Shown here: piece by piece, positions 14,318 through 39,733 of the stretch
How the letters are laid out: each line of letters opens with the position of its first letter
Position numbering within the stretch: the stretch's first letter is position 1
IMG/VR virus record: IMGVR_UViG_3300046318_000439
Coordinates: 128,001-192,000 of that record
Length of the DNA: 64,000 nucleotides
Reading direction: 5' to 3' (one strand)
Source: a virus
Taxonomy: Duplodnaviria; Caudoviricetes
The notes under the pieces: generated by a model
Databases searched by the model: none
What the model was told of the DNA's origin: nothing
Seen by the model: the letters and a program-made list of their open reading frames with translations, nothing else
Made by a program: the position numbers and the translations under genes

Positions 14318-15385
14318 TTACTCCTCAGTGATCATTTTAAGTTCTTCGTCAATTGATTCATCCGTAGACATAATCGAACCAGTAGATACTTGATAAGTTT
14401 TCTTAACCCAATCTTGGAATCCTTTATTCTGAATAACAGGGGCCCAGAAATCTTTCGTATCCGTATCCTTGATACGGAACTTCTTATCTTCTACAACTCC
14501 ATCTTCATCGACACGCGAGTACCAACCATTAGAAGGTTTGATAACGTGACCTGATTCTAAAGCCATATCAAGTAAACCAGACCAAGTTGAAATACCACCA
14601 TCATGTCTTACGGTAATAGGAATCTTAGACTTCTCACGCACATGACGTGATTTCTCTACGTTGATAATAAAGTTATAACCAATCAACTCAGTACCTTCTT
14701 TTTCTTGCTGACGACCTAAGATGAAGATATTATCAGCAGAGTAGTAAGAACCAGTACCGCCACCAACAACATCTTTAGAATATAACTCCAATGTCTTGTA
14801 TGTGTGATTAACAACAACCATTGGGATATCCTTTAGAGTTAGATGCGGTGTTACCATACGGAACAAACTCTTCATCTGTTTAGCACGACTCATATCTGCA
14901 GCAGACTTACCTTCCATTGCATCCTCTACTTCTTTCTTAGAAGCTAAGTTACCGATAGAATCAATAACAATGATCACATGCTCTTCACGTTCGATGCCGT
15001 GTAGCTGTTTCATAATGTCAAACTTTAATTGCTCTACGTCAGTAATAGGAGTGTGAACAACACGACCTAAGTCAATGCCAAACGATTCGAAGTATGATTG
15101 TGGTGTGCCAAACTCTGAGTCATAAAACAACATAACAGCATCTGGATACTTGTCCAAATAAGAACGAGCCATCAATAAGCTGAATGCAGTTTTGAAATGT
15201 TTAGATGGACCTGCCCACATAGTTAAACCAGGAGTCAACCCGCCATCGAGTCGACCACTCAAAGCAACGTTAATAGCTGGAATAGCTGTCGGAATCATAT
15301 CCTTTTTCTGAAAGAACTTAGAATCAGAAAGAATTTCAGTATCACTGATTGTACTATTCTTACGTAGTTTATTAATCAAGCTCAT
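14318..15385 (-). CDS. uvsX: RecA-like recombinase
   Basis: GPSKHFKT, FYDSEFG, IDSIGNLAS, VNHTY. Confidence 0.97.
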   Translation of the reverse strand: MSLINKLRKNSTISDTEILSDSKFFQKKDMIPTAIPAINVALSGRLDGGLTPGLTMWAGPSKHFKTAFSLLMARSYLDKYPDAVMLFYDSEFGTPQSYFESFGIDLGRVVHTPITDVEQLKFDIMKQLHGIEREEHVIIVIDSIGNLASKKEVEDAMEGKSAADMSRAKQMKSLFRMVTPHLTLKDIPMVVVNHTYKTLELYSKDVVGGGTGSYYSADNIFILGRQQEKEGTELIGYNFIINVEKSRHVREKSKIPITVRHDGGISTWSGLLDMALESGHVIKPSNGWYSRVDEDGVVEDKKFRIKDTDTKDFWAPVIQNKGFQDWVKKTYQVSTGSIMSTDESIDEELKMITEE

Positions 15386-15594
15386 TTTATTTCCTTTTCA
15401 AATTGGGTAGTGCCTAATATCCTTGTTAGTTTGACTAAGAAAACGCTCTCTTGCCAAACAAGTAATCTTATAATCACATAGGCAGCCATTGAGGCTACCG
15501 TAGAAAAGATCATTGATATAGTTGCTGCTGCTAATAATAAAATAGCAGCAACAATAACAACAATCATAGTAAAGGGGAGAAATACAATTTTCAT
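15382..15594 (-). CDS. Small membrane protein
   Basis: Hydrophobic 70-aa ORF. Confidence 0.5.
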   Translation of the reverse strand: MKIVFLPFTMIVVIVAAILLLAAATISMIFSTVASMAAYVIIRLLVWQESVFLVKLTRILGTTQFEKEIK

Positions 15595-16976: not shown

Positions 16977-17537
16977 TTATAAACCTTCGTAGATTGCTGA
17001 ATTGCCAGCATGCTCAAACACTTCAGCACTCTTTAGCTTAACACCTGATCCTACATTATAACGTGCTTGGAAGACGCGACCATCTGGATGTGTCCATCCC
17101 TTACCTTCTTGATACGCTGTTAATATTTCATTCATTGCTGTATAAGCTAGCTTTGAAAACAATTCACAACCAACACCATCCACTACGCGTAGATCACATA
17201 ATGCGCCACGCTCATTAGGTATCTTACTTAAATGATTTTCACTCTCTACATCAACAATTTCATTCATGTGTTCAAAAAAGTCTAGCATAGGATCATCCTT
17301 AGCTACAACCAACGTATGATCAAACATATAGTCAGCCCATTCCTTAAATGCCTTCAGTCCTCCAAAGTCCATAACCCAGTTACGGTCATCTAAAGTTTCT
17401 GATTCGAAAATAAGTTTAATGCCAATTGAGTATCCGTGTAGCAAACTACAGTGACTATGTCTGCTACGCCATTGGCGGAAGCAGCATGATAATCCACGAT
17501 CGGTACCATATGTTTTTGTTGAAAGATATTTTGCCAT
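16977..17537 (-). CDS. queD: 6-carboxy-5,6,7,8-tetrahydropterin synthase
   Basis: HSHCSLLHGY, WVMDFGGLK, FDHT, VGCE, EHAGNSA. Confidence 0.9.
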   Translation of the reverse strand: MAKYLSTKTYGTDRGLSCCFRQWRSRHSHCSLLHGYSIGIKLIFESETLDDRNWVMDFGGLKAFKEWADYMFDHTLVVAKDDPMLDFFEHMNEIVDVESENHLSKIPNERGALCDLRVVDGVGCELFSKLAYTAMNEILTAYQEGKGWTHPDGRVFQARYNVGSGVKLKSAEVFEHAGNSAIYEGL

Positions 17538-33786: not shown

Positions 33787-34288
33787 TATTTTTCACTCCA
33801 TATTTTTCATCATGTGATTTACCGACACCATAGTCTCCATCATATTTATGTAGTGCTTGAGCATCAAAGCTTAAATATTGACCGATGCGAGTACCTTGTT
33901 TAATCCTCGCTGGACCCACACCGACGTGTAATACACCAGCCATGACACCATGGTACCCGGAATCATAAAGACCAGAAGTAATAAACAACCCATTACGATT
34001 GAGAGTAGAACGAGTGATGACCCAACCTGCCTCTCCCTCACCGACATTAATAATATTCTCCATGACAACCTCATAATCCCCAGGCTGTAATGTATAGTAT
34101 CCCTCAGCATCCGGCTCAAGTGCGGCTTCGGTGCCTCTATGCTTCTTATGATCGTTAGAAATTTCGAATACATCATTCTTAATCGGAAATATCTTACCTA
34201 AACGCAAATCCACAGCATTAGGTTGTACGTCCCCCTCCTGTACGTTTGTTAGTGATGATTTTGAGCCTTCGCCCATAATATGCTTCAT
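33776..34288 (-). CDS. dut: Trimeric dUTPase/dCTP deaminase family
   Basis: VQPNAVDLRL, RSTLNRNG, GLYDSGYHG, RIGQ. Confidence 0.85.
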   Translation of the reverse strand: MKHIMGEGSKSSLTNVQEGDVQPNAVDLRLGKIFPIKNDVFEISNDHKKHRGTEAALEPDAEGYYTLQPGDYEVVMENIINVGEGEAGWVITRSTLNRNGLFITSGLYDSGYHGVMAGVLHVGVGPARIKQGTRIGQYLSFDAQALHKYDGDYGVGKSHDEKYGVKNNGN

Positions 34289-34842
34289 AGCCAATTCCAC
34301 TCCTGTAGTTTTTTATCAAATGCTTTTAATACTTCGTCTGTAAATTCTCGTAGCGTAGACTTATTCTCTAGCACTAGATTACAAACGGAGTTATCAAAAC
34401 CACGTTCCGTAATATGAGTATCGATAATTCCAAGAGGTCTATCAATCTTCACAATTTTTGCTCCTAGGTTCTGAAGATGAATCAATTCATTATCGAAACG
34501 AAGGTCTGTAATCACCCACACTGCATCTTCCGATGCAATTCTTTCATCCACATACTCTACAAACTGATTTACATCATATTTTCGCATCAACATACCGATT
34601 TCACGAACAACACGACGTCCATCTACTGATGTACTGTTGGACACTAGTATAGACCGTTTAAATGCGTCATACTCAGCAATCGTTTTTAGTCCAAATATAT
34701 GCATAATCTCACGTTTAATTGGATCAGCAAATGCAATGCGTCTAAAGGGACGATCAGTTGTAGAATAAGCATCTAGAAGGATATCAGCTACAGTATCCTT
34801 CCCACAACCTTTAGCTCCTGTTAATGCAATTATCTTCGACAT
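34285..34842 (-). CDS. Deoxynucleoside monophosphate kinase
   Basis: GAKGCGKDT, IAFADPIK, VITDLRFDNE, HITE. Confidence 0.9.
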   Translation of the reverse strand: MSKIIALTGAKGCGKDTVADILLDAYSTTDRPFRRIAFADPIKREIMHIFGLKTIAEYDAFKRSILVSNSTSVDGRRVVREIGMLMRKYDVNQFVEYVDERIASEDAVWVITDLRFDNELIHLQNLGAKIVKIDRPLGIIDTHITERGFDNSVCNLVLENKSTLREFTDEVLKAFDKKLQEWNWL

Positions 34843-35717
34843 AGACGATCAATCACTCCAATATTAAATTTTACAACATCATCGTGCGCTTTCACTTCAT
34901 GATTGTAGCTGAAATTAACTTCAGACTCAACTTTGCCGTGTTCAAGGCCAGACGGGGAGCGATCGAAGGGTACCCCATTAATACCAGCCCACACAGCTGC
35001 TGATGAGTCCCATGAATAGATATATGGTTGATATTCTCGTAATAACTCAATCTCGTTTGGACCATCTGTCATACCCAAGCAGTGAAACTTCTTAATAGCT
35101 CTTGCTGGTTGCAATAGTCCACGGTCATCTAATGACTTAAACATCATCCATCGTGATAAGAAACGTTGCAGTTTGTATGCGTCATTGCGTTTACCATCAC
35201 CGTGCTTAGACTCATTTACTTCAAATGCAATAGGACATGCTAGAATAGATACACCAATCAAATCCACTTCTGGATTCTCAATAGCCCATTCATATGAATT
35301 CATAATACCTTCCACATCACCCAATTCACTTTGAGGAACATAGAATGTACCGAACCCAGCATCCTTCAATTGAGGAATCTGTTTGATTGCTGTGTTCATT
35401 GTTTTCGACCATTCTTCTTTTGGATAGTCAGACATAACAATAACATCAGCCTTACAACGCTTACCCATCTCAATTAACTTGTTCGGATCATACATTGGAC
35501 GACCTTGCTTAAACATCTCGAAAGCTGAGTTGTCCATAATCTTTACTTTACCATCATCTAGATTAGCATAGTAGTCAGCATATGCTGGATCTTGTTCCAC
35601 AAGATGAGCAAGCAATAAGTGAGCTCCATTAGTTTTTGTATATCTGTCTAGGAAGTGGGTGGGAGCAATGTGACAGAATTTAATTCCATCATTAATATTT
35701 TTATTTAAGGGTGTCAT
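34830..35717 (-). CDS. dpdA: TGT-like (DpdA-family) deazaguanine transglycosylase
   Basis: IMDNSAFE, MSDYP, FHCLG, SWDSS TGT-type motifs; context with folE/queE. Confidence 0.7.
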   Translation of the reverse strand: MTPLNKNINDGIKFCHIAPTHFLDRYTKTNGAHLLLAHLVEQDPAYADYYANLDDGKVKIMDNSAFEMFKQGRPMYDPNKLIEMGKRCKADVIVMSDYPKEEWSKTMNTAIKQIPQLKDAGFGTFYVPQSELGDVEGIMNSYEWAIENPEVDLIGVSILACPIAFEVNESKHGDGKRNDAYKLQRFLSRWMMFKSLDDRGLLQPARAIKKFHCLGMTDGPNEIELLREYQPYIYSWDSSAAVWAGINGVPFDRSPSGLEHGKVESEVNFSYNHEVKAHDDVVKFNIGVIDRLCRR

Positions 35718-35748
35718 TTAATTTTAGCCTTGTTGTTAGATTGTTGCA

Positions 35749-36192
35749 TTATCTCTCAAAGTAGATACGGCAACCATTTTCATTATCTTCTGATACTTCA
35801 ATGCGGATCTCACGAGAAGGCCACGTCACTGCAATCTTGTCGTATAAATCTTTTGCAGTCATTTCACATGATTTGTAATCTACTGATAATGTCTTCTCAC
35901 TATACCAGCTTTCTAGTATTCTTTTCAACTGGATAAACTCTACATCTCGGTTGTCGTGGAATACTTCCATCTCTACTCTAAAGTGAAAGATATGGCGGTG
36001 AGGCGATGCCAAGAAACTAACATCAAGCCAATCGCCTGTTGCTAGTTTCGGATCGGTCGCTGCTGCTGGATATCTGTGAATGCCTTCTTTTTGAAATGTG
36101 ACCCAGATAAAAGACCTAGGCAACTTACCAATAGTAAAGTTATCCTCAACTCCATCTGGTAGTGTGTATGTTATTTCAGTAGGTGTGCTCAT
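35749..36192 (-). CDS. QueD-paralog T-fold protein, DpdL-like (putative CDG decarboxylase)
   Basis: EGIH, FLASPHRHIF (LxxxHRHxF), DVEFIQLKR, SCE, EDNENG. Confidence 0.65.
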   Translation of the reverse strand: MSTPTEITYTLPDGVEDNFTIGKLPRSFIWVTFQKEGIHRYPAAATDPKLATGDWLDVSFLASPHRHIFHFRVEMEVFHDNRDVEFIQLKRILESWYSEKTLSVDYKSCEMTAKDLYDKIAVTWPSREIRIEVSEDNENGCRIYFER

Positions 36193-36665
36193 ATTTTTAA
36201 CTTCTTCATGTTAATAAAACTTGGTATATTATCGCAATAGAGTAATATCGTTCTGTTACCCCATTGATCGGTGTATACGCGATATTCACTAGCATTATTG
36301 GTAACAAACTGTTGCATATCCTTACGTTTATATAATACAGCATCATGCGTATTAATGTCAATATGGATAATAAACTCACTAATCTTTTTAGGGTTGAATA
36401 ACCAACCACGTGGTCCTACCTCAACGTAAAACCGTTTGTTGTTGAGATTGCCTTTGACATCAACAGTAAACAATTTGTCACCCTTTTGCACAATAAAATC
36501 AATTCCTGATACCTGATCGTGATAATCGCTTTCACGGTCGTGAGCAATCATTCCTTGATTTGCAACGTGTTGTGCGTATAGCAATTCAGCTGCTCGTCCT
36601 TTTGCTCCGTTAGCCCCATATGCTCCCTCAAGCGTCGGTGTCCATTCTGGTGTCAATCTAGACAT
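36189..36665 (-). CDS. PD-(D/E)XK-like nuclease (likely start 36665)
   Basis: GRAAE...DQVSGIDF...TVDVKG spacing. Confidence 0.5.
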   Translation of the reverse strand: MSRLTPEWTPTLEGAYGANGAKGRAAELLYAQHVANQGMIAHDRESDYHDQVSGIDFIVQKGDKLFTVDVKGNLNNKRFYVEVGPRGWLFNPKKISEFIIHIDINTHDAVLYKRKDMQQFVTNNASEYRVYTDQWGNRTILLYCDNIPSFINMKKLKI

Positions 36666-36677
36666 AAAACTCCATAA

Positions 36678-36712
36678 TAAAAAAGCCCACACCCAATTAA
36701 GAGTGTAGGCTC
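36678..36712 (-). terminator. Rho-independent terminator
   Basis: AGCCTACAC...GTGTGGGCT followed by T-run. Confidence 0.75.
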
Positions 36713-36728
36713 ATATCACTTGTTTATA

Positions 36729-36992
36729 TTAAACGCGTGAGAACAATGCATCTGCGCCTAACAAAGCAACAGCTGCTGCAACCATACGACGGCTTGGTGT
36801 GCCCAAGCGATACTTCAAAGTCTCGCGACCTTTAGTATCTGTATGTTTGTTCAAGTAGATCGCATGACCTTCTTGACGTAGCAAAGACACTACTTTGCGT
36901 GGTGATGCAATGTTAAACTGCGCACCAATTTGCTTAGCTGTCAATTGACGGCCTTCTTGTAACACATTCAATACTTTCTGCTTTTGATTCAT
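36729..36992 (-). CDS. Winged-helix DNA-binding protein
   Basis: KVLNVL..GRQLTAKQI..FNIASPR..V..LRQEG..IY...KYRLGTP. Confidence 0.75.
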   Translation of the reverse strand: MNQKQKVLNVLQEGRQLTAKQIGAQFNIASPRKVVSLLRQEGHAIYLNKHTDTKGRETLKYRLGTPSRRMVAAAVALLGADALFSRV

Positions 36993-37041
36993 ATAGTACT
37001 CCTACAAAGTTAATAACATAATCTGGAAACCAGAATGTTCA

Positions 37042-37071
37042 TTCTATAGCATAATTAAAAAAGAAGTCAAC
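37042..37071 (-). promoter_or_regulatory. Sigma70-like early/middle promoter
   Basis: TTGACT-18 nt-TAGAAT. Confidence 0.55.
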
Positions 37072-37073
37072 TG

Positions 37074-37766
37074 TTATTTGTTACTACCAATACGGGCAAT
37101 GTTCAAAAACTCACGACGCACTTCTGAATCGGGAGCTGAGAACAGACCACGGGTTGATAATGTAACAGTTGATGAGCCTGTGTCTTGAATGCCACGGCTC
37201 TTGACGCAGTAGTGGGCAGCGTCAATGTATACAGCGACGTGTTCTGTCTCTGTAATAAATGCAATTGCTTCACAGATCTGCTCTGTTAGACGTTCTTGCA
37301 CTTGTGGGCGCTTTGCAAAGAATTCTACAATACGGTTTAGCTTAGATAAGCCAAGAACCTTCTTGGTTGGAATATATGCAACAGTCGCCAACCCATCAAT
37401 AACTACAAAGTGGTGTTCGCAGTTAGATTGGACGTTAACATTACGCTCAAGAACAAATGAATGGTTGTAATCCATTTTGTTTTCGATCGTAGTGCATTTT
37501 GGGAACTTTGTGTAATCAAGACCCCAGAAGATTTCGTTGACATACATTTTCGCTACACGGTTAGGGGTATCTTCCAAAGAGTCATCATTTAAGTCAAGAC
37601 CAAGAGTATCCATAATCTGTTTGAATAATGGAGCAATCTCTGCAATCTTATCTTCTGATGGACGGAGAACTTTATTAGTGATAGGCGTTTCCAAGCCTTT
37701 TGATAATAAATGTTGGTGAACGCGCAAACCAAGTTCTGCATTCGCTTTATGCACTGGATGTGACAT
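37074..37766 (-). CDS. folE: GTP cyclohydrolase I
   Basis: TPNRVAKMY, SNCEHH, GLSKLNRIV, RPQVQERLT, HYCVKSRG. Confidence 0.97.
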   Translation of the reverse strand: MSHPVHKANAELGLRVHQHLLSKGLETPITNKVLRPSEDKIAEIAPLFKQIMDTLGLDLNDDSLEDTPNRVAKMYVNEIFWGLDYTKFPKCTTIENKMDYNHSFVLERNVNVQSNCEHHFVVIDGLATVAYIPTKKVLGLSKLNRIVEFFAKRPQVQERLTEQICEAIAFITETEHVAVYIDAAHYCVKSRGIQDTGSSTVTLSTRGLFSAPDSEVRREFLNIARIGSNK

Positions 37767-37871
37767 AGATTGTATTTCCTTTCAGGTTGTCGGTGGAAAG
37801 GTCAAGGACCACCAGAATGATTTCTGGTATACTACTTATAAAAAAATAGCACCACTTGGATGCCATTTTAT

Positions 37872-37902
37872 ATCTTTAAATGTCTAAAGTCAACTATCAG
37901 TT
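37872..37902 (-). promoter_or_regulatory. Sigma70-like promoter
   Basis: TTGACT-17 nt-TAAAAT upstream of folE. Confidence 0.55.
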
Positions 37903-37909
37903 GTAATGA

Positions 37910-38233
37910 TTATGCACATTGTTTTTCCATTTCAGCATACCATGCTTCTTGCTCACGTTTACGCTCATCATCAAGCCACTTAGCGCGCTGAGCAAGCTCA
38001 GGATCAGTCTCCTCTATTACCCAACCCTGCTCTCGTAAATGCTCACGACCTTGGAAGGTCTGCTTGAGTTCGTCCATTTCATTATGGATTCGTTGAATCT
38101 GACCCTCAAGAAACTCTTGATCGTTCCATTGCTCATTACTCACCCAACGAGGACGGAATCCATAAAAGTCTTTATGGAAATCGCTAAATTCACATTGGAG
38201 CTTTTCTACTACTGTAAAATCATCCCAAGACAT
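37910..38233 (-). CDS. Hypothetical protein (likely start 38233)
   Basis: FSDFHKDFYGFRPR motif common in phage early genes. Confidence 0.7.
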   Translation of the reverse strand: MSWDDFTVVEKLQCEFSDFHKDFYGFRPRWVSNEQWNDQEFLEGQIQRIHNEMDELKQTFQGREHLREQGWVIEETDPELAQRAKWLDDERKREQEAWYAEMEKQCA

Positions 38234-38263
38234 TTCAAAACCTCTCTCAATTAACATATAACC

Positions 38264-38292
38264 ATTATCCGGTTTTATTAATAAAAGGTCAA
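38264..38292 (-). promoter_or_regulatory. Sigma70-like promoter
   Basis: TTGACC-17 nt-GATAAT. Confidence 0.5.
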
Positions 38293-38327
38293 CAGCTAAA
38301 ATAACGTGTAAATATTGGGTAGGATAC

Positions 38328-38355
38328 AAAAACAGCCCACATAAAATGGGCTGTA
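38328..38355 (-). terminator. Rho-independent terminator
   Basis: ACAGCCCA-ttttatg-TGGGCTGT then TTTT. Confidence 0.75.
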
Positions 38356-38376
38356 TAATGTTATTTTAAATCTAAT

Positions 38377-38850
38377 TTAGGTCGGAGTTGAGGGGGTTGA
38401 GGTTGAACCTGGATCAGATTCCCACCAAAAATGTACCCATTCTTTATATGACTCACGACTAATAGTGGTACCACAATAATCTGGCTTGATGCTTTGGTCT
38501 TTGTTATAAATCATAACAGCAATACCAACCTTATCTCGGCCGCAGCCCCAATCTTCTAACAACTCTTTCATTGTACGGCCAGAATCTAAAATATCATCTA
38601 CTAACAACACATTCTTGCCTTCAGCAATATCTTCCGCGATATCTAATGCCGATTCCCTCATTTGATCGCTATGAAAAGTTGACCACGACACTGTACGCAT
38701 TGGAATACCTAAACGATGCGATAGATACACAGCAGGAATTGCACCGCCTCTCACAATACCGACAACGTAGTCGTAAAACTTACCAGAACCAGTAATTTGA
38801 TGTACCAATGAGTCTGCATCTTGTTTGAATTGATTATATGAATAATACAT
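38377..38850 (-). CDS. Type I phosphoribosyltransferase (purine PRT-like)
   Basis: VGIVRGGAIPA, VLLVDDILDSGRT, WVHFWWE. Confidence 0.9.
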   Translation of the reverse strand: MYYSYNQFKQDADSLVHQITGSGKFYDYVVGIVRGGAIPAVYLSHRLGIPMRTVSWSTFHSDQMRESALDIAEDIAEGKNVLLVDDILDSGRTMKELLEDWGCGRDKVGIAVMIYNKDQSIKPDYCGTTISRESYKEWVHFWWESDPGSTSTPSTPT

Positions 38851-38851
38851 T

Positions 38852-39733
38852 TTATTTTCCTATCACGTTACCGAACACGTAACAATGATTACGTGTAGCT
38901 ACATTAAATCCTCGTTTCATTGCTTCAATACTAATCTTAGCAACTTGTTCATCTTCTTGTTGATCTTTCGTAGCACCAACTGGCATCACCCAGAAGTCTA
39001 CTGGAAGTGAAGAAGCAGCGTAGATATCTTTTACAGCTTGATCTACTTCAGCCCAGCATGCATCTGTTCCATTAACCACAAACTTAACCACATGCGTGTA
39101 GCCAGCCTTAATATAAGAAGCAATCACTTCAGGCTTCACAGCATCTTTCTCACCAGACACCGTAAACAGTTTAGGCGACATTGCGAAGTGGAAATCAATT
39201 CCAGAATAATGAATCATCTCTTCCATCGCTGGAGTAATCTCTTTAGTGGCATTGGTCTCAATTGTAATCAGCTTAGGCATGTTATCACGCTTCTTAAGCT
39301 CTTCTACGACAGCAATCATAGCCTTCTGCCACATCATTGGCTCGCCACCAGTAAAACACAATTGTGTGTCAATTCCTGTAATAGGATGAACCCATTTACC
39401 TTCTGGATTAGTTTCATGCTTAAGCATGTCAATCAACTTATTGCCAACTTCTTCTTCATTATTGTCTTGTACTAAATGCTTATACTTGGCTGACCAGGAG
39501 TAAGAAGAGTCACATCCATGCTTCCATACTGGCAAGTCTTCAATACGATTAACAGTACTGATATCAAACGTTGCATATGGTAAGATGTATGTTTCTGGAT
39601 TGGTAGGATCCGATTGTCCGAATCCATTACATTCTAGGTTACATCCAAAGAATCGAATCCAAGCACTAGGCTTGCCAGCATATAATGCCTCACCTTGGAA
39701 ACTATAAAACATTTCTGATATTCTAATTTTCAT
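38852..39733 (-). CDS. queE: 7-carboxy-7-deazaguanine synthase (radical SAM)
   Basis: SFQGEA, IRFFGCNLEC...GCDS, FTGGEP, IETN, SPKL, KFVV. Confidence 0.9.
   Translation of the reverse strand: MKIRISEMFYSFQGEALYAGKPSAWIRFFGCNLECNGFGQSDPTNPETYILPYATFDISTVNRIEDLPVWKHGCDSSYSWSAKYKHLVQDNNEEEVGNKLIDMLKHETNPEGKWVHPITGIDTQLCFTGGEPMMWQKAMIAVVEELKKRDNMPKLITIETNATKEITPAMEEMIHYSGIDFHFAMSPKLFTVSGEKDAVKPEVIASYIKAGYTHVVKFVVNGTDACWAEVDQAVKDIYAASSLPVDFWVMPVGATKDQQEDEQVAKISIEAMKRGFNVATRNHCYVFGNVIGK

Follow-up and report, generated by a model that had tools for sequence, protein, structure and literature searches.

A covarying pseudoknot ahead of folE in T4-like phages, a candidate translational riboswitch of a 7-deazaguanine pathway

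Does the leader of folE, the GTP cyclohydrolase I gene of a T4-like phage, hold an RNA structure that controls translation, and could that structure be a riboswitch? The leader lies in a stretch of 64,000 nucleotides (nt), hereafter the window, which covers positions 128,001 to 192,000 of IMG/VR virus record IMGVR_UViG_3300046318_000439. The T4-like phage genome to which it belongs is complete at 202 kb and has direct terminal repeats. DNA of this phage was present in freshwater and aquatic metagenomes (public sequencing runs), and no close DNA relatives of the window were found among deposited phages. Upstream of folE, the intergenic region spans 143 nt on the minus strand. A sequence-only reading of this region had proposed an H-type pseudoknot in which the loop of a GGTGG/CCACC stem pairs with the folE Shine-Dalgarno (SD) sequence, together with a competing fold; all of the strings that it quoted were present at their places on the minus strand. 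Our analysis indicates that the element is very probably a functional cis-regulatory pseudoknot that gates the folE SD. Its reading as a translational riboswitch that senses a metabolite comes just short of an even chance, and for this reading we infer that a ligand binds, what it is, in which direction control acts, and where the transcript starts. Slightly more tentative is the proposal of a new riboswitch class restricted to T4-like phages, one that senses a QueC-independent 7-deazaguanine intermediate (7-carboxy-7-deazaguanine (CDG), 7-deazaguanine, or a nucleotide) and exerts feedback on the enzyme that opens the pathway supplying hypermodification of the phage DNA.

A FolE-guided scan of IMG/VR yielded 80 loci. 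Among the 14 closest FolE loci (78–91% identity), five distinct leaders, with unrelated flanks, contained the core GUCCUUG(A/C)CC..UUCCAC ... CUGAA..GG. Gene-blind pattern scans were performed on IMG/VR and a metagenome collection, and the FolE-guided and pattern scans together gave 23 distinct sequences with the element ahead of folE (viral and metagenome contigs). All pattern hits that had the stem and the SD preceded a GTP cyclohydrolase I gene (PF01227), while approximately 50 of the 73 hits in metagenomes and 17 of the 37 in viral sequences were rejected as chance matches inside genes. The pattern was also run against 185,579 prokaryote species, each represented by a single genome, and gave 33 hits, none of which combined P1, SD, and folE; all were chance matches.

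In the register shared by the family, P1 is a 5-bp stem that closes a 15-nt loop (UCCUYSMCC-UUU-CCA), and the 3' half of this loop pairs with the SD stretch GAAAGG as P2, which makes the fold an H-type pseudoknot. In alignment A1 (23 sequences), 94.3% of the P1 and P2 cells were paired, and 7 of the 12 pairs had changed on both sides. None of 500 shuffles reached any of the five measures, and pairing amounted to only 35–64% in the slid control, in which partners were shifted by 1–3 columns. P1 occurred as GACUG/CAGUC, GACAG/CUGUC, GACGG/CCGUC, GACCG/CGGUC, AACGG/CCGUU, GAUGG/CCAUC, and GUCGG/CCGAC. The P2 variants were matched in length and letters: CCUUUC/GAAAGG (window), CCUUUUC/GAAAAGG, CCUUC/GAAGG, CCAUUC/GAAUGG, and CCUCUUC/GAAG(A)AGG, with a single U-G pair in P2 of L148. 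The proposed pairing between loop and SD is thus kept by compensatory changes across related folE leaders, both here and in the longer form described below.

The longer form, with an extra 5' domain, was present in 14 relatives (type B and L015), for example L116:4806-4870 (minus strand), L119, L131, and L015:2880-2945. In type B, the elements follow in the order S1 (GCAAC/GUUGC), conserved loop AAGGUAUU, S2 (CCAGAG/CUCUGG) crossing S1, a mini-hairpin, a U run, joiner CGCAGGUCU, P1, and P2. The four helices of the long form were 97.2% paired, 12 of the 23 pairs had changed on both sides, and the slid and shuffle controls were clean. S2 covaried at five of its six pairs, and the compensatory swaps included CCAG to CUGG (L123) and CUACUG/CAGUAG (L015). 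The long form is a double-knotted leader of approximately 110 nt; the hairpin P0 of the window corresponds to S2, the only part of the extra domain that is retained, as a simple hairpin. An SD-like box, CAAGG(U), recurs in the type B loop or in the joiner just ahead of P1 (L170, L015, and the phages D479 and Ahp1 described below), where it might pair with the anti-SD sequence in place of the SD.

The unpaired letters were far more constant than the proteins encoded downstream. GUCCU...C...UUCCAC was invariant in 23 of 23 sequences, and A30, A31, C33, and T34 (window numbering) were invariant at the end of the linker in alignment A1. FolE identity was 55–58% between the window and type B, 44–47% for L189, and 32–37% for L102; the letters of loop and linker were identical across these FolE clades, the flanks and helices varying while the loops stayed fixed. 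L102 combined a FolE of approximately 34% identity with an RNA near-identical to the type B leader of L116, and L003 (1083-1838) carried a type B RNA ahead of a FolE 85% identical to that of the window (37074-37813). Either the RNA module and the coding region swapped partners or they evolve at very different rates. The upstream gene varied by subgroup (a 139-amino-acid (aa) protein of unknown function here, a QueE-like or PTPS gene in type B); the RNA travels with folE and nothing else, and the phage genome contains one copy of the element.

Chance complementarity in closely related phages would fit the folding of single sequences, as the window leader alone folded no better than its shuffles (minimum free energy (MFE) −14.3 kcal/mol, z = −1.09, 28 of 200 shuffles equal) and a type B leader gave z = −0.19; single-sequence z-scores, which ranged from −1.1 to +0.45, are uninformative for pseudoknots. 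The sequences are related by descent, and the shuffle controls overstate significance for this reason. Nevertheless, the compensatory changes in both forms with their clean controls, the variable helices and flanks around fixed loops, and FolE identities among carriers down to 32% make chance barely credible as an explanation.

The sequence-only reading had placed the P1 3' strand at CCACC. In the family majority, the conserved CCA immediately precedes this strand, which is thereby shifted 3 nt downstream relative to CCACC, so the proposed GGTGG/CCACC stem is not the family-wide register. In the window, however, the family-wide register amounts to +0.8 kcal/mol versus −7.3 kcal/mol for GGUGG/CCACC, and the latter is therefore probably the correct stem for the window's subgroup (six sequences). 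The letters of the former 3' strand (GAC, GCA, ACA) drift in the subgroup, as expected if the P1 register moved. Nearest-neighbour energies, which refer to individual helices, were −8.0 kcal/mol for P0 and −4.8 kcal/mol for P2 alone, making P0 and P1 nearly isoenergetic. The inner pairs of P0 differed among L002, L009, L091, L169, and L183 while pairing was kept; the subgroup showed AGAA/UUCU, AAG/CUU, AAGG/CUUU, GGGAUAA/UUAUUCU, and AGGUAA/UUAUCU, a covariation judged by eye in six members. Mutual exclusion of P0 and P1 is real in the subgroup because the invariant ACC of P0 pairs with GGU of the P1 5' strand. Of the competing fold proposed earlier, the ACCAGAA/TTCTGGT hairpin is thus conserved and competes with P1 in the subgroup, but the accompanying GGTC/GACC mini-hairpin is not conserved, as its pairing is lost in L009, in L015, and throughout type B. 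The features of the locus are summarized in Table 1.

Table 1. Elements of the folE leader, transcription signals, and neighbouring genes (window coordinates)
Feature	Position	Strand	Basis or remark
P0 hairpin ACCAGAA-AUCA-UUCUGGU	37828-37811	minus	MFE and centroid fold; arms ACCAGAA 37828-37822 and UUCUGGU 37817-37811
P1 5' strand GGUGG	37813-37809	minus	3-nt overlap with P0
Conserved loop UCCUUGACCUUU, 12 nt	37808-37797	minus	L1 = UCCUUGA; anti-SD = CCUUU(C)
Anti-SD CCUUUC, P2 5' strand	37801-37796	minus	Complementary to GAAAGG 37783-37778
P1 3' strand CCACC, register of the window's subgroup	37796-37792	minus	Nearest-neighbour energies
P1 3' strand CCGAC, family-wide register	37793-37789	minus	Family covariation
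L3 linker GACAACCU	37791-37784	minus	Terminal AAYCU conserved family-wide
P2 3' strand GAAAGG	37783-37778	minus	5' part of SD stretch AAAGGAAA (37782-37775); conserved AAYCUGAA precedes
Late-promoter-like box TATAAGTA	37840-37833	minus	One mismatch from T4-type late promoter TATAAATA; 4 nt upstream of P0
Terminator-like hairpin AAAAUGGCAUC-CAAGU-GGUGCUAUUUU + U7	37869-37840	minus	Fold; kept in L002, L009, L169, L183
Sigma-70-like promoter TTGACT-17-TAAAAT	37893-37865	minus	Consensus match only, 10/12
folE start codon AUG	37766-37764	minus	
folE, GTP cyclohydrolase I, 230 aa, regulated gene	37074-37766	minus	Pfam PF01227 E=2e-56; NCBIfam FolE 302 bits
QueE-like radical SAM protein, 293 aa	Two genes upstream of folE	minus	Relatives annotated QueE in Vibrio, Pseudomonas, and Campylobacter phages
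Purine-type phosphoribosyltransferase (PRTase)	Adjoins QueE-like gene	minus	
DpdA3-like protein, 295 aa	Downstream of folE	minus	Distant match to 'DNA guanine transglycosylase' of Flavobacterium phage immuto
Deoxynucleoside monophosphate (dNMP) kinase	After DpdA3-like gene	minus	
QueD-like protein	16977-17537	minus	

The regulated gene belongs to a 7-deazaguanine pathway cluster (34285-39733 and 16977-17537, minus strand). The QueE-like protein was 45% identical to its type B counterpart, and the DpdA3-like protein showed 24.8% identity to the immuto protein over 81% of its length (E=1e-6). The PRTase gene adjoins pathway genes in type B contigs too, an adjacency that hints at a nucleotide-level step undescribed for DpdA-type systems. 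Neither QueC nor a Pfam-detectable TGT was found in the genome. FolE, QueD, and QueE are also present in Cellulophaga phage phiST, which lacks QueC and a canonical DpdA, and the DNA of phiST and of Flavobacterium phage immuto_2-6A is completely modified via the distant DpdA3 subfamily (Cui et al. 2023, PMC10516641). With QueE-like, QueD-like, and DpdA3-like neighbours, the DNA-modification context suggested earlier is plausible by homology, and the pathway very likely feeds DNA modification, as judged from its gene content. Directly downstream of folE lies a small winged-helix (HTH_39) gene (36729-36992, minus strand), with a separate promoter-like site at 37070-37041 and a strong terminator at 36712-36683.

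We propose that the leader combines the aptamer with the expression platform in a new riboswitch that turns translation OFF. P1 presents the pyrimidine-rich loop, and CCUUUC pairs with GAAAGG and so hides the ribosome-binding site. The ligand, an end product or intermediate of the QueC-less pathway (CDG, 7-deazaguanine, or a nucleotide thereof), would lie at the P1/P2 junction, in a site lined by the invariant unpaired letters (UCCU... of L1, CCA, and the AAYCU end of L3). Its binding would stabilise P2, which is otherwise marginal, and switch off FolE, which catalyses the first step of the pathway. In the window's subgroup, the ligand-free ON state may be aided by the hairpin ACCAGAA/UUCUGGU, into which three nucleotides of the P1 5' strand are drawn. 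With a marginal P2 and a balanced P0 and P1, the system appears to be poised as in small pseudoknot riboswitches. The leader shows the generic hallmark of a riboswitch, namely a structured leader with covarying stems and invariant loop letters ahead of one metabolic pathway, and we favor the metabolite because of the invariant unpaired letters, the exclusive linkage to folE, the marginal P2, and the close structural precedent.

Invariant unpaired letters beside covarying stems could mark a protein site just as well as a ligand pocket, and the element could then be a translational operator whose loop or pseudoknot is bound by a phage protein (FolE, another pathway enzyme, or a general regulator) or by a host protein, which would block access to the ribosome-binding site. 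T4-like phages are known for autogenous translational operators, and the small winged-helix gene (36729-36992) follows folE. We consider such an operator unlikely, since no candidate RNA-binding protein stays with the element (the neighbours differ between subgroups), FolE diverges to 32–46% identity while the RNA is fixed, which argues against tight FolE co-evolution, and leaders of metabolic enzymes with such size and shape are usually riboswitches.

The transcription signals bear on a second alternative. TATAAGTA was invariant in the six subgroup leaders, type B had ATAAATA at the equivalent place with fixed spacing, and one or the other box stood 4–12 nt ahead of the first helix in all subgroups. 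The genome contains 14 TATAAATA boxes, most of them 15–50 nt upstream of start codons. In T4-type late leaders, such a box stands approximately 6 nt ahead of the RNA 5' end, and to judge from the position of the box here, a late transcript probably opens directly with the structured RNA. Further upstream, the 5' arm of the terminator-like hairpin overlaps the −10 box of the sigma-70-like promoter, an arrangement conserved in L002, L009, L169, and L183; read-through from the upstream gene would stop at the hairpin, and transcripts from the sigma-70-like promoter would lack its 5' arm. Accordingly, a ligand-independent element can be envisaged that sets a fixed low level of translation, protects the 5' end of the late transcript, or folds differently in early transcripts (from the sigma-70-like promoter) and late ones (from TATAAGTA). 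T4 genes e, soc, and 49 provide a precedent for early and late transcripts with different 5' ends and folds, the structure would begin at the RNA 5' end given the late-promoter-like box, and another 55 nt upstream there is an early-type promoter. The highly stable, static helix of L012 and the relatives that manage without the element, both described below, point the same way. However, approximately 20 unpaired letters invariant across FolE clades of 32–58% identity are not needed by a stabiliser or attenuator, nor is an exclusive link to one metabolic gene, and most late leaders of this genome are short and apparently unstructured. We therefore regard a ligand-independent role as rather unlikely.

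Several observations weigh against the interpretation as a poised metabolite switch. In L012 (121-196), P2 consists of 11 perfect pairs (CUUGACCAUUC/GAAUGGUCAAG) directly upstream of the SD, and the GGA of the SD is contacted by a duplicated UCC, with a 3x3 internal loop in between; this element lacks a separate promoter and lies 20 nt past the stop codon of the upstream gene. The variant resembles a fixed structure more than a switch in balance. Among the close FolE relatives, L005, L006, L010, and L011 have no leader, and their folE is translationally coupled to the upstream gene, whose stop codon it overlaps; since these relatives do without the leader, the element is dispensable. The exclusion of P0 by P1 is limited to the window's subgroup, as type B has a 9-nt joiner between the two. 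Lastly, the search patterns imposed part of the sequence conservation (GUCCU, UUCCA, and AAYCUGAA were fixed), and most of the sequences were ascertained in this way; the pattern-fixed letters nevertheless agree with the five leaders found via FolE homology alone, and the covarying positions were free in the patterns.

To extend the family, a covariance model was built from the 23 sequences. It identified a divergent copy ahead of folE in the cultured Aeromonas phage Ahp1_CNU-2021 (20.9 bits, E=2e-4), which reads GGAUG-CCCUUGACUCUUCCG-CAUCC ... CCUGAAGAAAGG, and a weaker look-alike ahead of folE in Vibrio phage D479 (6.1 bits, E=3.3). By eye, a further variant was recognized in Vibrio phage Bakedbeans. 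In Rhizobium phage RHph_I1_18, a homologue of the DpdA3-like protein was present, but folE directly abuts the upstream gene, with no leader. A second hit of the model in the window (15382-15441, 17.3 bits), ahead of a 355-aa open reading frame (ORF), was rejected as an SD-like string inside an ORF. DNA contigs from public runs were identical and yielded neither transcript ends nor population variants, and in RNA-labelled public runs 5–7% of the sampled words matched, none of them covering the leader. No description of the motif was found in the literature, the coverage of which was incomplete, so novelty is not proven.

Another T4-like clade (L047 and L052-L081; e.g., L063:2890-3003) has a second, unrelated conserved folE leader. 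It comprises a AATAAATA box, a hairpin with a covarying stem and the fixed loop ACAA(C/A)GG, an A-rich spacer, and a hairpin that encloses the SD and varies between AACC...GGUU and AUCC...GGAU. Scanning of this leader against Rfam gave no hit at E<=1.

Because a clear copy exists in the cultured phage Ahp1_CNU-2021, and a weaker look-alike in D479, the riboswitch proposal is bench-testable. If it is true, no earlier riboswitch would have served a viral DNA-modification pathway in this dedicated way, and RNA would have a fourth structural means of recognizing 7-deazaguanines. Ligand binding would make it a new riboswitch class, possibly with a new ligand (CDG or 7-deazaguanine); it would mean that phages control anti-restriction DNA chemistry via their own metabolite sensors, and the sensor could be usable as a small SD-sequestering part for engineering. 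Even without a ligand, the leader represents a well-supported, uncatalogued RNA family with clear helices.

Comparison with catalogued RNA families was performed with Rfam 15. A cmscan of the leader found no match to any catalogued family over 1.6 kb, or over 111 nt and 166 nt at E<=10; neither these scans nor one of the loci of 10 relatives at E<=1 gave RF00522, RF01054, or RF02680. Hits to gltS, Zeta-pan, and DUF2815 RNA at permissive thresholds (12–19 bits, far below gathering) were discarded as noise.

The folE leader resembles preQ1-I (RF00522) in being a small H-type pseudoknot with a P1 of approximately 5 bp, in its 3' tail, which extends to the SD, and in preceding que-pathway genes. 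It differs in its 15-nt loop with an L1 of 7–8 nt (2–3 nt in preQ1-I), in a tail that is not an A run, and in a P2 of 5–7 U-A-rich pairs versus 3–4. The specificity cytidine of preQ1-I occurs as AC or UC before P1 (PMC11625349), whereas the folE leader has CCA (CCG in Ahp1) before the P1 3' strand and no specificity C; in the window, CCA even forms part of P1. The earlier view that this is not a canonical preQ1-I switch agrees with both the Rfam result and the A, rather than the specificity C, found 5' of the P1 3' strand.

Closer in architecture is preQ1-II (RF01054; queT leaders of Lactobacillus rhamnosus and Streptococcus pneumoniae), with which the leader shares a stem, a pyrimidine-rich loop, an anti-SD, the 3' strand of the stem, an adenine-ending linker, and the SD, as well as an SD fully inside the knot helix (CCUUUC/GAAAGG and covarying variants). 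preQ1-II is translational and has a 7-deazaguanine ligand, and its element order is that of the folE leader if P4 is omitted (review PMC11625349). In contrast, the folE leader lacks the preQ1-II P1 and P4 helices and has a linker of 7–22 nt without a conserved hairpin; its junction pair is C-G rather than a U-A-U triple, and the conserved letters differ. It is found in phages of Gram-negative or aquatic hosts, whereas preQ1-II is found in Firmicutes before queT, and the pathway here stops before preQ0. The preQ1-II/III pocket has ten shared nucleotides: a C plus a third strand of UU lies over U-A pairs, the anti-SD is followed by a U, and the SD is preceded by an A (PMC11602147). The L1 of the folE leader starts with UCCU, its P2 is U-A-rich, and its L3 ends in AAYCU, but the junction is C-G, C or A follows the anti-SD, and the registers are not one-to-one; a triple-helix register of L1 and P2 and a one-to-one mapping onto the preQ1-II pocket were tried on paper and gave no clean fit. 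The shared H-type topology with SD pairing, the 7-deazaguanine pathway, and the element order of preQ1-II without P4 would be explained if the leader were a diverged member of preQ1-I or preQ1-II. This is very unlikely given that none of the three preQ1 models matched, that A rather than C precedes the P1 3' strand, that L1 has 7–8 nt and the P2 junction pair is C-G and not the U-A of the preQ1-II floor triple, and that, without QueC, preQ0 and preQ1 are not products of the pathway.

THF-II (folE motif) and THF-I are likewise cis-regulators before folE and folate genes, but neither was matched by Rfam at the leader, and folE here stands in a 7-deazaguanine, not a folate, cluster. SAM-II and SAM-V are H-type pseudoknots of aquatic bacteria in which a pyrimidine loop runs along a U-A-rich SD helix and the ligand stabilises SD sequestration; they differ from the folE leader in sequence and gene context, with no covariance-model match. 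Precedents for a translational operator are the pseudoknots of the T4 gene 32 leader and of Escherichia coli rpsO/S15, together with the gp43 operator; these pseudoknots or hairpins repress translation at ribosome-binding sites of T4-type phage or bacterial mRNAs and are bound by proteins in autogenous control, whereas the folE leader has no evident partner protein and its gene encodes a metabolic enzyme. We file the leader as an element that works like the H-type riboswitches but is a member of none of the catalogued classes.
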